A stretch of DNA of 64,000 nucleotides from Lysobacterales bacterium (lineage in GTDB: Bacteria > Pseudomonadota > Gammaproteobacteria > Xanthomonadales > Xanthomonadaceae), in assembly GCA_014946745.1 (NCBI GenBank), contig JADCRD010000001.1, positions 1,360,427-1,424,426 of the forward strand. The letters are read 5' to 3'. Under the pieces are notes generated by a model. It had not been told where the DNA came from, ran no database searches, and saw only the letters and a program-made list of their open reading frames with translations. The position numbers and the translations under genes are program-made. Shown here piece by piece: positions 14,304 through 54,188 of this stretch; the stretch's first letter is position 1, and each line of letters begins with the position of its first letter.

Positions 14304-14333
14304 CGGGATTGGGAATTCGGGATTCGGGATTCG
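14304..14333. repeat. heptamer microsatellite, ~4 units (GGGATTG GGAATTC GGGATTC GGGATTC)
   Basis: Direct tandem repeat in the dctM-guaB intergenic region. Confidence 0.9.
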
Positions 14334-14461
14334 CAGCCAGCGGAATCGAGCGTGAGGGGGGGGCGCATGCTCCGCCGGCCTCGGAGGACGCAAACCCGCG
14401 CTAACGCCGCGCCTCCGGCCCGTCCTATACTGTCGCGCTTCTTTCCTCCGGAGCCCGCCGC

Positions 14462-15916
14462 ATGCGCATCCAGGTTGAAGCACTGACCTTCGACGACGTC
14501 TCCCTGATTCCCGCCCACTCGGTGGTGCTGCCCAAGGACGTCAGCCTGGCCACGCGGCTCACGCGCGGACTCAAACTCAACCTGCCGATCGTGTCCGCCG
14601 CCATGGACACCGTCACCGAAGCGCGCCTGGCCATCGCCATGGCCCAGCTCGGCGGCATCGGCATCCTGCACAAGAACATGAGCGTCGCCGAGCAGGTGGC
14701 GCACGTGCAGCAGGTCAAGAACTTCGAAGCCGGCGTGATCCGCGAGCCCTTCACGGTGGGCCCCAACACCACGATCGGCGAAGTCATCAAGCTCACCCGC
14801 AAGCGCAACATCTCGGGCGTGCCGGTGGTCGACGGCAACCAGCTGGTGGGCATCGTCACCAGCCGCGACATGCGCTTCGAGAAGCGGCTGGACGACCCGG
14901 TCAGCCACATCATGACCAAGAAGGATCGCCTGGTGACGGTGGGCGAAGGCGCCTCCGATGACGAAGTGCTCGACCTCATGCACAAGCACCGCATCGAGAA
15001 AGTGCTGGTGGTCGACGACCAGTTCGCCCTGCGCGGCCTGATCACCGTCAAGGACATCCAGAAGGCCCGCGACAACCCCAATGCCGCCAAGGACAGCGAC
15101 GAGCAGCTGCTGGTCGGCGCCGCCGTCGGCGTTGGCGGCGATACCGAAGCACGCGTCAATGCCCTCGTGCAGGCCGGCGTCGATGTGATCGTGGTCGACA
15201 CCGCGCACGGCCATTCGCAGGGCGTGCTGGATCGCGTTCGCTGGGTCAAGAAGACCTTCCCGAACGTGCAGGTGATCGGCGGCAACATCGTCACTGGCGA
15301 GGCCGCGCTGGCTCTGCTCGACCACGGCGCCGACGCGGTCAAGGTCGGCGTGGGCCCGGGCTCGATCTGCACCACGCGCATCGTGGCTGGCGTTGGCGTG
15401 CCGCAGATCACCGCGATCGACCTCGTCGCCACTGCGCTCAAGGACCAGATCCCGCTCATCGCCGACGGCGGCATCCGCTACTCCGGCGACATCGCCAAGG
15501 CGATTGCCGCCGGCGCTTCCACCGTGATGATCGGCGGACTGTTCGCCGGCACCGAAGAAAGCCCCGGTGAAACCGAACTCTTCCAAGGCCGCAGCTACAA
15601 GAGCTACCGCGGCATGGGCAGCTTGGGCGCGATGGAGCAAGGCAGCAAGGACCGCTACTTCCAGGACGCGTCCGACGCCGACAAGCTGGTGCCCGAGGGC
15701 ATCGAAGGCCGCGTGCCCTACCGCGGCTCGGTGCGCAACATCGTCCACCAGCTGGCCGGCGGCCTGCGCGCCTCGATGGGCTATGTCGGCTGCGCCAGCA
15801 TCGAAGACATGCGCAGCAAGCCCAGCTTCGTCCGCGTCACCAATGCCGGCGTCCGCGAGAGCCACGTCCACGACGTGCAGATCACCAAGGAGCCGCCGAA
15901 CTACCGCGCAAGCTGA
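14462..15916 (+). CDS. guaB: IMP dehydrogenase
   Basis: [20 protein letters not shown], tandem CBS pair, catalytic GSICTT loop. Canonical GuaB. Confidence 0.95.
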
Positions 15917-15926
15917 CGCTTGCGCG

Positions 15927-15957
15927 GCGGGATTGGGGATTGGGGATTGGGGATTGC
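15927..15957. repeat. heptamer microsatellite (GGGATTG)x4, G-rich on the + strand
   Basis: GCGGGATTGGGGATTGGGGATTGGGGATTGCG lies 11 nt after the guaB stop. Four G3-4 tracts with 3-4 nt loops give a G-quadruplex-type motif. Confidence 0.9.
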
Positions 15958-16065
15958 GTCTGCTGCGGTCGCTCAGACGATCGGTACCGCGTCACCGCTC
16001 TGGTTTGCACTCTCGCTACGCCCCTTGGGCTGTTCTTGGGCCTGATGTTTCGTGGGCCCGCTCTT

Positions 16066-51952: not shown

Positions 51953-52512
51953 GGCTCGCCCTGGAAGGCCTTGAGCAGCCAGGCGCGGGCGCGCAGCCAG
52001 TCGCGCTGCACGGTGCGCAGGGAGGTGTCGAGCGCAGCCGCGGTTTCCTCCTCGCTAAGTCCTCCGAAGTAGCGGCACTCGACCACCTGGGCCAAGCGTT
52101 CGTTGAACTGGCGCAGCTGCTCCAGCGCGAGGTCGACGGCAAGGATGTCCTCGGCCTGCTCGTCGATGGCGACCAGGTCGGGCGTCAGGGTGAGATCAGG
52201 CTGGCCGCCCCCGCGCTTATCGCGACCGCGCGCGCGCGCGGCATCGACCAGGATGCGCCGCATCGCGCGGGCGCAGATCGCGAAGAAGTGGGTGCGGCTC
52301 TGCCAGTCCACGCCGGTCTCGTCGACCAGCTGCAGCCAGGCCTCCTGCAGCAGGGCGGTGGTTGAGAGCGTCTCGCCGCCGAGGCCGTCGCGCCGCCGCT
52401 GGCGCCTGGCGATCTCGTGCAGGCGCGCATAGACCATCGGCACCAGCGCGTCGAAGGCGGCGCGCTCGCCGGCGCGGTGCCGCTGCAGGAGTTGAGTGAT
52501 CTCGGCATCCAT
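51949..52512 (-). CDS. ECF-type RNA polymerase sigma factor (STK-associated subfamily) co-transcribed with the kinase-TPR gene
   Basis: 187 aa. AFDALVPMVYARLHEIARRQ...TTALLQEAWLQL and C-terminal HTH (GGLSEEETAAALDTSLRTVQRDWLRARAWL). Confidence 0.85.
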   Translation of the reverse strand: MDAEITQLLQRHRAGERAAFDALVPMVYARLHEIARRQRRRDGLGGETLSTTALLQEAWLQLVDETGVDWQSRTHFFAICARAMRRILVDAARARGRDKRGGGQPDLTLTPDLVAIDEQAEDILAVDLALEQLRQFNERLAQVVECRYFGGLSEEETAAALDTSLRTVQRDWLRARAWLLKAFQGEP

Positions 52513-52727
52513 GGGCGGTCGCGGCTTTGTGCGGTGGCTGAATCATACGGCCGGCGCGGCCGCGCTGCGGAATGTCGCGGTGCCGCAAGGCCGCGCCGTC
52601 CGCCCGTCCTCGCGCTTGCCGCTGGCTGTCGTTTCCCTCGCGGCGCCACGTGTACAGGCCTGACGACGCGCGGAGCCTGTCTGCCCGCCGGGACGTCAGA
52701 CGCCCTAGATGCTTGAGGAGTTCCGCC

Positions 52728-54023
52728 ATGAACACGATCCATCTGATTCGCAGCGGCCTGCTGCTGGGCCTGGGCCTTGCCGCCAGCGCCACTCCCGCCC
52801 AGGTCGAATACCGCAGCCTCGACCTGCAGGCCGCTTTTGGCAGCGAGCTGGTGCCGGCCAAGTCCAGCGTCGAGGTGCGCTGGGAACACCTCGGCAAGGC
52901 CCGCTTCGGGGACATCGATACGGCCGGCGCGCCGTCACCGCTGCCGGAGCCCCGTAGCGACGAAGTAGAGGACCGCCTCAAGTCGATGGCAGATGAACTG
53001 GACGCGCGGCACTGGGTGGCGGTCAACGTTCGTACCGGCGACGAGTACCTGGTCGAGCTGCCGCTCGGCACGGCGCGCGGCCTGCGCATGCTGGCGGCCA
53101 AAGCTGGCTGGGAGCAGGGCTACGAAGGCCCTGCCAACGACCCGACCGGCGCCCGCGCCGAGGCGCAGATGCCGCTGCTGGGCGACGCCAAAGGCTGGAG
53201 CAATGGCCACGACAGCCGCACCCGTCGCTTCGACAACACCAGCTATCCCTATCGCGCCATGGGTCAGATCGGTGGCGGCCTCGACTGGGGCTGCTCGGGC
53301 ACCCTGGTCGGGCGTCGCCATGTGCTGACCGCCGCCCACTGCCTGTTTGGCTGGATCGAGCAGGACGACGGCAGCTTCGAGGGCACCTGGACCCTGGGCG
53401 GGCGCTTCCGCGCGGGCCGAGAGGGCAGCTGCAACAACGCCAGCTGCGAGCCCTACGGCGAACAACAGGGGGTGTGGTACTACACGCCGGCCGCCTGGCG
53501 CGCCAGCCGCGATGCCTGGAACCACGACTACGGCCTGATCGTGCTGGACGGCACGCCGGGCAGCCAGACCGGCTGGCTGGGCTACGTTGCAACCGCTCAA
53601 GCCACGATCGAGGACTACTGCGACAAGGTGCCCTTTGGCCCAGGCTACCTCGGTGGCCAGTGCTACAACCGTGGCTACCCGGCCTGCGGCGAGATCGAGG
53701 CCCCGTTCGAGTGTCGCGTCAACAACAGCCTGCAGGGTTGGGCCTACCAGGACACCAAACCCTGCGAGATCGGCAGCTTTGGCAGCAACGGTGCGGACGG
53801 CTGGGCGGCGCGCTTTACCACCAACTGCGACCTGAGCCGAGGCCACTCCGGGTCGGCGGTGTTCACCGACGCTTGGAACGGCTCGGGTCATGTCGTGTTT
53901 GGCGTGGTCAGCACGCAGAGCTGCACGACCTGCAGTGCTGGCGAGGTCTACGTCAACGGCATCCGCCGCGTGACCCCGGAAGTGCTCGACATGATCGCGT
54001 ACTTCAAGGCTGACAAACCGTAA
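52728..54023 (+). CDS. secreted trypsin-like (S1 family) serine protease
   Basis: Signal peptide. Catalytic His context TLVGRRHVLTAAHC. Ser context SRGHSGSAVF. Many Cys residues. GAGGAG SD upstream. Start at ATG 52728. Confidence 0.8.
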   Translation: MNTIHLIRSGLLLGLGLAASATPAQVEYRSLDLQAAFGSELVPAKSSVEVRWEHLGKARFGDIDTAGAPSPLPEPRSDEVEDRLKSMADELDARHWVAVNVRTGDEYLVELPLGTARGLRMLAAKAGWEQGYEGPANDPTGARAEAQMPLLGDAKGWSNGHDSRTRRFDNTSYPYRAMGQIGGGLDWGCSGTLVGRRHVLTAAHCLFGWIEQDDGSFEGTWTLGGRFRAGREGSCNNASCEPYGEQQGVWYYTPAAWRASRDAWNHDYGLIVLDGTPGSQTGWLGYVATAQATIEDYCDKVPFGPGYLGGQCYNRGYPACGEIEAPFECRVNNSLQGWAYQDTKPCEIGSFGSNGADGWAARFTTNCDLSRGHSGSAVFTDAWNGSGHVVFGVVSTQSCTTCSAGEVYVNGIRRVTPEVLDMIAYFKADKP

Positions 54024-54141
54024 GGGCGGCTGCGATTCGCAGGACGGTCATCCCCGCTCCGGCGGGGATGACCGGCCTCTTTGCGAGGGGCATGGGCAGG
54101 TGCCTTCGCTCGGCCGACAGAGCCCAGGCGCGCGTACGCTC

Positions 54142-54188
54142 ATCCCGAATCCCGAATCCCGAATCCCGAATCCCGAATCCCGAATCCC
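54142..54188. repeat. heptamer microsatellite (ATCCCGA)x~6.5, longest array of the family
   Basis: TCATCCCGAATCCCGAATCCCGAATCCCGAATCCCGAATCCCGG between the convergent protease and ABC permease genes. G-rich on the minus strand. Confidence 0.9.

Follow-up and report, generated by a model that had tools for sequence, protein, structure and literature searches.

Heptamer microsatellite arrays at gene boundaries in an Aquimonas-like genome: members of a known repeat family, two of which form the arms of one predicted hairpin between guaB and guaA

We analyzed a 64,000-nucleotide stretch of a Lysobacterales genome (assembly GCA_014946745.1, contig JADCRD010000001.1, positions 1,360,427 to 1,424,426; hereafter, the window) that carries five short tandem arrays of a guanine-rich heptamer, GGGATTS, in its intergenic regions (arrays 1 to 5; Table 1). 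These arrays are, with near certainty, copies of the GGGANTN family of heptamer repeats known from Xanthomonas and Nostoc. Arrays 2 and 3 make up the arms of a single predicted hairpin in the gap between guaB (IMP dehydrogenase) and guaA (GMP synthase); comparison with related genomes suggests that the complementarity of these arms is retained longer than the guanine tracts from which a G-quadruplex (G4) could be built. We favor the view that the arrays are stem-loop elements that are born by slippage and reside at gene boundaries, and we give it slightly more than even credence as a whole; within it, we regard the family identity as near certain and the mechanism as far less so. Protein identities place the source of the window close to Aquimonas, in the Xanthomonadales, the order to which Xanthomonas also belongs: its GuaA is 95% identical to that of Aquimonas sp., and its MacB-like permease shares 99% identity with the Aquimonas voraii protein. 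The G+C content of the window is 67%.

The arrays belong to a known heptamer family

Direct reading, Tandem Repeats Finder, and a regular-expression scan over the 64 kb located five arrays at the positions given in the original prediction; the arrays are therefore real, but their unit number spans 3.4 to 6.9 instead of the 4 to ~6.5 that had been claimed. As period-7 repeats, arrays 1, 4, and 5 were delimited at 14304-14333, 28688-28715 (3.4–3.6 copies), and 54142-54189, respectively. The regular-expression scan found no further arrays of at least two units in the 64 kb. The pattern GGGATTSGGGATTSGGGATT (20 nt, at most 3 mismatches) has 12 matches in the window versus 0.01 in dinucleotide-preserving shuffles. 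All five arrays fit GGGATTS and, with it, the published consensus for the family (GGGANTN; a tandem heptamer of at least 14 bp in which positions 1–4 and 6 are conserved); the deviants are one GGAATTC unit and two 8-nt units. The latter are found in array 4, whose units read GGGATTG GGGATTG GGGGATTG GGGGATG... and are therefore partly of the 8-nt type (CCCCCAAT). The unit GGGAATC, with which the published Xanthomonas screen was seeded, occurs in none of the five window arrays and is found in orthologous arrays of three relatives (L205, L208, and L213); GGGGATT, the seed used for Nostoc, is contained in arrays 2–4 (Rehm et al., 2015). A GANTC (CcrM-type) methylation site was considered as the conserved core and ruled out, because position 7 of the heptamer is G in arrays 2–4.

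The reference survey of these repeats is that of Rehm, Wurmthaler, Li, Frickey, and Hartig (Rehm et al., 2015, PLoS One 10:e0144275; PMC4692102), in which GGGAATC/(GGGANTN)n was described for Xanthomonas and GGGGA(C/T)T for Nostoc PCC 7120. There are 186 copies in X. campestris pv. campestris (Xcc) and 183 in X. axonopodis pv. citri (Xac); 89–93% of these are intergenic, their lengths peak at four units, and in 70–75 cases two arrays are in convergent orientation. The sites are shared between Xcc and Xac in 83% of cases, with differing lengths, and the repeat-bearing regions are genomically more stable. Most of the heptamer repeats are transcribed, and in RNA-seq data for Xac the transcript starts and stops located there exceed those in controls (PMC4692102). 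The arrays in the window resemble these repeats in their conserved positions (G1–3, A4, and T6), their intergenic location, their length of about four units, and their occurrence as convergent inverted pairs; also, the G strand is found within 50 bp past a stop codon, or on the opposite strand just upstream of a start codon, and sites are kept between related species as their length varies. Array 2 has the sequence of the Nostoc-type oligonucleotides that Rehm et al. tested by circular dichroism (CD). Unlike the Xanthomonas repeats, the prevailing unit in the window is GGGATTC/GGGATTG, not GGGAATC, and the host is Aquimonas. Most of the checks proposed with the original prediction (genome-wide mapping, position relative to genes, and CD) had thus already been published for sister taxa, and the window leaves the 2015 picture of the family standing; what it adds is the host genus, the unit variant, and comparative evidence on which feature of the element is conserved. 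The 2015 paper is without the co-variation of the arms, the slower evolution of the arms than of the spacer, the inner motif, and the count of pair polarity that are described below.

An exact scan for (GGGATTN)4 was performed with one genome per species; because it fixes the GGGATT core, it is uninformative on other heptamers. It returned more than 120 stretches of other genomes, many of them from Xanthomonadales/Lysobacterales. The genera among the matches listed include Lysobacter, Luteimonas, Xanthomonas, Dokdonella, Rhodanobacter, Frateuria, Aquimonas, and Pseudomarimonas, and the other taxa include cyanobacteria (Nostoc, Anabaena, and others), Planctomycetota, Chloroflexota, Acidobacteriota, Bacteroidota, and a few more. 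The arrays of the window also recur at the same sites in the Aquimonas relatives, and the prediction that the arrays belong to a dispersed family is supported. In the IMG/VR collection of viral contigs, (GGGATTN)4 is found on 67 stretches (L217–L283); some viral contigs carry 4–6 arrays, including pairs in the order G-array, C-array (e.g., 3300047586_000299 and 3300039412_000878). The heptamers had been reported as unseen in gamma-proteobacteria besides Xanthomonas (PMC4692102); the host range is wider than that and extends over the Xanthomonadales/Lysobacterales, several other phyla, and viral contigs.

Cyanobacteria carry a short tandemly repeated repetitive sequence, STRR1, with the units CCCCAAT and CCCCAGT, reportedly described by Mazel and colleagues in the Journal of Bacteriology in 1990; its CCCCAAT unit is identical to the C-strand unit of arrays 2–4. 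The cyanobacterial arrays differ from those in the window in that they belong to another phylum and to low-GC genomes, are longer, are more often intragenic, and are rarely paired (PMC4692102), and common descent with them is unlikely. A preprint on Nostoc recF/recO was considered as a further match and set aside; it concerns other heptamers.

Arrays 2 and 3 as the arms of one predicted hairpin

The original prediction treated arrays 2 and 3 as independent microsatellites; they are instead 28-nt inverted arms that are 96% complementary and 109 nt apart. The predicted RNA fold of positions 15905–16110 has a free energy of −106.5 kcal/mol, compared with −76 ± 4.6 kcal/mol for shuffled sequences (z = −6.6), and is dominated by a 27-bp arm–arm stem that reaches as far as the guaA ATG; by itself, the duplex of the arms is worth about −54 kcal/mol. 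The spacer by itself is unremarkable (z = +0.59), that is, it has no structure of its own. A short hairpin that presents the UGA stop codon of guaB in its loop (Table 1) directly precedes the array stem. This hairpin is identical in L202–L206, and in the more distant L125 it is represented by a compensated variant, CGCGCCGGC-UGAU-GCCGGCGCG.

Table 1. Heptamer arrays, the parts of the guaB–guaA hairpin, and the adjoining genes (positions are those of the window; for arrays, the strand is that of the G-rich sequence)
Feature	Position	Strand	Copies	Remarks
Array 1	14305-14332	+	4.3	GGGATTG GGAATTC GGGATTC GGGATTC; solo
Array 2	15929-15956	+	4.0	(GGGATTG)4, perfect; 5' arm of guaB–guaA hairpin
Array 3	16066-16093	-	4.0	+ strand CAATCCC CAATCCC GAATCCC CAATCCC; 3' arm
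Array 4	28694-28715	-	about 3.4	mixed 7- and 8-nt units; solo
Array 5	54142-54188	-	6.9	(GGGATTC), perfect; solo
Stop-codon hairpin	15905..15926	+		9 bp, CGCGCAAGC-UGAC-GCUUGCGCG; guaB UGA in 4-nt loop
Spacer/loop	15957..16065	+		109 nt; 3' end CCCGCTCTT matches inner motif of the family
dctM-like TRAP transporter large permease	13025..14299	+		start inferred from 424-aa orthologues
guaB (IMP dehydrogenase)	14462..15916	+		Pfam IMPDH/CBS matches in orthologous loci
guaA (GMP synthase)	16094..17680	+		start codon abuts array 3
MacB/FtsX-type ABC permease	54194..55471	-		stop codon 54194-54196

Translational coupling of guaB and guaA across the stem was also considered; it is weakened by two observations and is retained only within the speculative proposal of a selected module (vide infra). 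The guaA gene of the window has no Shine-Dalgarno sequence, and guaA lacks one throughout the order, whatever the length or content of the gap; in addition, the 5' arm starts beyond the reach of a ribosome that has stopped at the UGA.

The arms appear conserved and change together

Close relatives for comparison were drawn from protein searches; metagenomic matches based on GuaB were only 82–88% identical at best, and the more distant Lysobacterales compared at the guaB–guaA gap have GuaB proteins that are 72–88% identical. The gap is identical to that of the window in L202 (GuaA 99% identical) and in the Logan contig L001. In L204 (GuaA 97%), both arms are identical to those of the window, including the odd GAATCCC unit in its place, and the spacer has substitutions at 18 of its 109 positions. 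In L205 (GuaA 95%) the arms are GGGAATC/GATTCCC, and in L203 (GuaA 98%) they are degenerate and enclose a longer, unrelated spacer. The divergence of the spacer between the window and L204 (16.5%) is about that of third codon positions (guaB, 18.6%; guaA, 16.8%), so that about nine changes would be expected in the 56 arm bases at the neutral rate; there are none (P about 4e-5, or about 0.006 if only the heterogeneous 3' arm is considered). Because the variant unit stayed in place, turnover of the arrays since the window and L204 diverged is unlikely; the arms therefore appear constrained, that is, they appear to evolve more slowly than neutral sites. The copy number of 4+4 is invariant in five relatives, despite changes of unit.

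The guaB–guaA gaps of more distant Lysobacterales contain a range of further pairs: GGGATTC/GAATCCC (L125), (GGAACTA)5/TAGTTCC without any G3 tract (L127), a degenerate GGGAATG/CATTCCC pair (L141), a pair of the GCGAGGG type (L143), and another degenerate pair (L137). When arms were compared between loci, the best partner of the 5' arm was the 3' arm of the same locus in the window/L204, L205, L127, and L143 (z = −5.9 to −8.7 versus shuffled arms); the arms of L203, L137, and L141 pair equally well or better with an arm from another locus (z = −2.3 for L141). These comparisons suggest that changes of unit occur in both arms together, and that the complementarity of the arms outlasts the G-tracts in the more distant orthologous elements. 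Six further relatives have unrelated REP-like palindromes in the gap (L122, L126, and L129–L132) and four have a very short or overlapping gap with no element (L124, L133, L135, and L142); the guaB–guaA gap thus looks like a permissive site for palindromes. The window, L127, and L125 share the motif CCGCTCTT at the ends of their spacers; it was rejected as proof of orthology in situ because it is the family-wide inner flank, so that independent insertions at a permissive site are possible.

Polarity and flanks of the pairs in other genomes

Among the matches listed, 106 arrays have complete flanks; an inverted partner lies downstream of the G-array in 45 of these and upstream in 4 (23 and 1, respectively, in the class of highest GC content, which is mostly Lysobacterales). 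The order G-arm, then C-arm, reads the same on both strands; the polarity is therefore a property of the pair, as the published term 'convergent' implies. In the high-GC pairs (n = 31, mostly Lysobacterales), the G-arm is followed by GNAAARGC and the C-arm is preceded by GCYTTTNC; per 10 nt there are 2.97 A versus 0.87 T after the G-arm, and 2.87 T versus 1.06 A before the C-arm. The pair in the window retains only the 3' half of this inner motif (CCCGCTCTT). The spacers of pairs in other genomes range from 6 to 184 nt and differ in sequence even within one genome.

Among the matches listed, arrays past a stop codon have the G strand as the sense strand 30 times and the C strand 11 times (16 versus 2 in the high-GC group), and the G-array starts 2–13 nt past the stop codon in 27 of the 30 stop-proximal cases. 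The linker between the stop codon and the array is purine-rich and often ends in GCC. Two long arrays (L096, 4333-4479; L004, 4592-4661) consist of a run of GGGATTG followed by a run of GGGATTC (9+12 and 4+6 units, respectively); a block structure of this kind is what directional expansion, or recombination among arrays, would produce.

Placement at gene boundaries

We checked the gene models around the arrays against orthologous contigs. Array 1 begins 5 nt past the stop codon of dctM (14299), about 130 nt ahead of the guaB ATG; array 2 begins 12 nt past the guaB stop codon; the last base of array 3, which is G-rich on the non-coding strand, directly precedes the guaA ATG (16094); and array 5 begins 5 nt past the stop codon of the gene for the MacB-like permease, in a convergent intergenic region. 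Four arrays therefore have the placement of the known family (5, 12, and 5 nt past a stop codon for arrays 1, 2, and 5, and 0 nt from a start codon for array 3). Array 4 is the exception: it is located in a divergent intergenic region of ~470 nt, 115 nt ahead of the ATG (28831) of the acyl-CoA dehydrogenase gene acd. A mechanically called open reading frame (ORF) on the minus strand (27436..28704) overlaps array 4; its orthologues, which combine an ArsR-type helix-turn-helix domain with a methyltransferase, have only 308 aa, so the overlapping extension is spurious and the real start is near 28362. The same orthologues rule out that array 4 abuts the ATG of a lipoprotein-like ORF. With gene starts corrected in this manner, all five arrays are intergenic, as had been predicted. 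The order dctP-dctQ-dctM-guaB-guaA is the same in relatives, and the genes that neighbor the arrays have no common function.

The arrays had also been placed in promoter and terminator positions, and this claim is not supported: in consensus scans around the arrays, no promoter or intrinsic terminator consensus overlaps any of arrays 1–5, and a weak terminator-like site was found inside the guaB–guaA spacer only. At the gathering score, Rfam has no family at any array; its sole match in the whole window is a cobalamin riboswitch (vide infra).

Solo arrays are gained, lost, and changed in length

At the site of array 5 there are 5 units in A. voraii DSM 16957 (L207), 6 in L211/L212, 6.9 in the window, and 8 in L210; between L210 and L211/L212 the MacB protein is the same, and the flanks do not otherwise differ. 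The site is occupied by (GGGAATC)4 in L208/L209 and by (GGGAATC)6 in L213, where the downstream genes differ, and by a decayed remnant in L214–L216. The original prediction that the arrays may be prone to slippage thus holds for the perfect solo array 5 and not for arrays 2 and 3, for which 4+4 units are fixed in five relatives. Intergenic 7-nt repeats with single-unit gain and loss, as at array 5, are used as variable-number tandem repeat (VNTR) markers in the multilocus VNTR analysis of Xanthomonas (e.g., XVM028, GGGAATC; PMC6459536); these markers were selected for variability, whereas arrays 2 and 3 are invariant in copy number. Perfect solo arrays such as array 5 are usable as markers for strain typing.

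Synteny breaks exactly at array 5: an EAL-domain gene is located downstream in L208/L213, and a trypsin-like protease gene in the window, L207, and L210–L212. By this comparison, array 5 appears to lie at the boundary of an indel or rearrangement.

The array 1 site is retained and drifting, with a unit lost in L204 and substitutions in L203; in L205, array 1 has 3 units and a C-arm partner about 140 nt downstream. We considered that array 1 of L203 might have lost its G-tracts and rejected this, as four G3 tracts remain. Arrays 1 and 5 have a common 8-nt outer junction, TGAG[A/G]GCC, that includes the upstream stop codon (14297-14304 and 54189-54196). L205 has this 8-mer in reverse ahead of the guaA ATG, past the 3' arm, and there it does not contain a stop codon of a gene; it may represent a target site, the end of an element, or coincidence.

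Array 4 is absent from the orthologous region of L284–L287, in which the neighboring genes are 91–94% identical, and this distribution marks it as an apparent recent gain. The same divergent gap contains GTAG-type REP palindromes at 28545-28570 and 28597-28622 (TTGTAGGAGCGAGCTTGCTCGCGACC and its partner), of which there are several copies in L286 (2055-2503) and none in L284. These REPs are a second family of intergenic repeats that is unrelated to the heptamers.

The only length-variable array, array 5, is located past a stop codon. Microsatellites that drive phase variation would be expected in other settings, namely within an ORF of a surface or virulence gene or between its −35 and −10 boxes, where length switches expression; the arrays are intergenic, lie beside housekeeping and transport genes, and overlap no promoter consensus. 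The arrays do not behave as phase-variation switches.

Quadruplex competence and predicted folds

The claim that the arrays are G4 motifs is correct for the G-rich strand of all five, each of which passes the canonical regular expression (G3+N1-7, four times), and most arrays in the window and in close relatives have exactly four G3+ tracts. In vitro, (GGGATTG)3GGG and (GGGGATT)4 fold in K+ into stable G4s of the antiparallel type (T1/2 above 74 °C), as determined by CD (GGGATTC was not included), and (AATCCCC)4 forms i-motifs up to pH 6.5 (PMC4692102). Using ViennaRNA with its G4 term, we obtained about −8 to −10 kcal/mol for a G4 in isolated arms; when the arrays were folded in context, a G4 came out as the minimum-energy structure of array 4 only, and hairpins or wobble fold-backs are predicted for array 1, arrays 2/3, and array 5. 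The repeat (GGGAUUC)n is a G·U-wobble palindrome, for which the predicted fold-back in array 5 is worth −17.3 kcal/mol. The predicted potential for G4s and i-motifs is therefore sound insofar as identical oligonucleotides fold in vitro; it is not the best-conserved property of the elements, as the G-tracts are lost in distant ones. G4 folding is an available alternative and not the best-conserved feature.

Function and competing explanations

We infer that the elements act, if at all, by folding at transcript boundaries, in one of two states. In the paired state, the guaBA transcript, or extruded DNA, would pair arrays 2 and 3 into the 27-bp stem, the base of which lies 12 nt past the stop codon of guaB and abuts the start codon of guaA, and would loop out the neutral 109-nt spacer. 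As a long duplex, paired arrays could be a site for a double-strand-specific RNase or a barrier to 3' exonucleases or polymerases. In the solo state, the G-strand arrays (1, 4, and 5) are gained, are lost, and drift, with slippage when perfect, and could form a G4 or a G·U-wobble fold-back at the 3' terminus of the message from the upstream gene. The elements might also act as a pause or insulation signal.

Several observations weigh against this view. For arrays 1, 4, and 5, the scan placed no rho-independent terminator (a GC-rich stem-loop with a U-run immediately after it) on the array or behind it, and the A-tract/T-tract core of the high-GC pairs looks like a bidirectional terminator and fails the criteria of the scan. 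G4 competence is kept at most sites in close relatives, and a plain hairpin leaves unexplained both the G-then-C polarity and the published peak at four units, which a G4 would explain. The test of arm conservation is based on one genome pair at one locus, and L203, with its degenerate arms and replaced spacer, demonstrates that the constraint is not universal. The element is dispensable for guaA expression, because four relatives have none and six have unrelated palindromes in its place. Finally, no regulatory role was found for the heptamers of Xanthomonas (PMC4692102).

It is possible, although we think it improbable, that the arrays are G4/i-motif cis-regulators, in which four G-tracts are kept for a quadruplex that modulates transcription, termination, or translation. 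The canonical motif in all five arrays, the folding of identical oligonucleotides in vitro (G4 in K+; i-motif up to pH 6.5), and the predicted minimum-energy fold of array 4 are consistent with this explanation, as are the published peak at four units, which is the minimum for a quadruplex, and the G-then-C polarity, which puts the G-arm first in transcripts that enter from either side. However, the elements in L127 (GGAACTA), L137, and L141 lost their G3 tracts yet keep complementary arms; the 27-bp stem, at about −54 kcal/mol, is strongly favored over a G4, at about −10 kcal/mol, with folds other than G4 predicted for the remaining arrays; and the transcriptomes of Xanthomonas revealed no regulatory effect. 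Also unlikely, in our judgment, is that the arrays are a neutral or selfish by-product of slippage and template switching that persists harmlessly just outside the ends of ORFs. The behavior of the solo arrays (a recent gain of array 4, drift of array 1, and length change of array 5), the lack of common function among the neighboring genes, and the attribution of the bacterial heptamer excess to polymerase slippage (PMC4692102) are what this explanation predicts, and the empty gaps in four relatives and unrelated palindromes in six are as expected for a permissive site. It does not account for the unchanged arms between the window and L204, in which the neutral rate predicts about nine changes and the variant unit has kept its position; for the 4+4 length kept in five genomes despite unit changes; for a strong G-then-C polarity across phyla; or for the 83% positional conservation between Xcc and Xac and the greater stability of the repeat-bearing regions.

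The arms might instead be the terminal inverted repeats of a non-autonomous mobile element (MITE- or REPIN-like) that is moved by a transposase or by a REP-associated tyrosine transposase (RAYT), which we consider very improbable. A fixed polarity is expected of terminal inverted repeats, the inner motif is common to the high-GC (mostly Lysobacterales) pairs, the outer flank often ends in GCC and is shared as TGAGRGCC by arrays 1 and 5, array 4 was gained beside REPs, and arrays are also found on viral contigs. The likeness to REP/BIME/REPIN sequences extends to their being short intergenic repeats, often just past stop codons, in inverted doublets that fold into a long hairpin, and to their being transcribed, tolerated in operons, and gained and lost between relatives. 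In REPs, however, each arm is itself imperfectly palindromic (20–40 nt), is headed by GTAG, and depends on a RAYT, whereas the arms in the window are tandem microsatellites without GTAG, and the genuine REPs in the window look different; also, no Y1 transposase was found among those 16 window ORFs that the Pfam scan covered. As to a MITE, no target-site duplication is visible flanking the guaB–guaA pair, and spacers vary in length (6–184 nt) and sequence even at one orthologous site, being non-homologous among L203, L205, and the window. For the Xanthomonas heptamers, no association with mobile elements was found (PMC4692102), and the ends of the IS1595 copy in the window (vide infra) are without the heptamer.

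Our preferred view of slippage-born stem-loops at gene boundaries also has a stronger form, which we put forward as a tentative and rather unlikely proposal: paired arrays would be a selected structural module, that is, a microsatellite-built stem-loop that marks gene boundaries in several phyla with a fixed G-then-C polarity. According to this proposal, purifying selection would act on arms of about four units, with changes of unit in both together; the module would be a bidirectional transcript-end or intercistronic element that switches between the long duplex and a G4 in the first-transcribed arm; and at guaB–guaA it would loop out 109 nt, bringing the stop codon and the next start codon to within ~12 nt of each other. 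The comparisons sharpen the question beyond whether the repeats form G4s: conservation of the arms at a single locus far exceeds that of the spacer, and units change in concert. Should this be true throughout the genome, what is conserved would be the stem, or else the option of forming either stem or quadruplex.

Other features of the window

About 20 nt ahead of the guaB ATG there is a box, CCTATACTGTCGCGCTTC (14424-14441, + strand), that is kept as a TAnAAT-like sequence plus GCGCGCTTC in all Lysobacterales guaB loci that we fetched; from this conservation, it is probably the −10 box of the guaB promoter and a conserved leader. Directly past guaA is an IS1595-family transposase gene (17943-18905, + strand) that is present in the Logan contig L001 and absent from L202–L205, that is, it is a strain-level insertion. 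We considered and rejected a link between the arrays and IS1595, which is a strain-specific insertion whose ends lack the heptamer.

The window had been described as otherwise non-repetitive. This is incorrect: in addition to the REP palindromes beside array 4 (28545-28622), there is a 39-nt inverted repeat between two large genes (33058-33096 and 33182-33220; type CCCCTCTCCC...GGGAGAGGGG), the halves of which are 95% complementary and 85 nt apart. Palindromes that resemble it are also found in L122, L130, L144, and L214.

The cobalamin riboswitch (38542-38799, + strand; 100 bits) is located directly upstream of a gene for a metE-like cobalamin-independent methionine synthase (38822-41302, + strand), and the B12-dependent metH (23377-26070, − strand) is 12 kb from the riboswitch; this arrangement is classical. 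An uncharacterized three-gene cluster (30171-38476, + strand) consists of two ORFs without a Pfam match (214 and 729 aa) followed by a gene for a 1745-aa protein with DUF3686 ('ATPase involved in DNA repair'), DUF7902, and AAA_5 domains.

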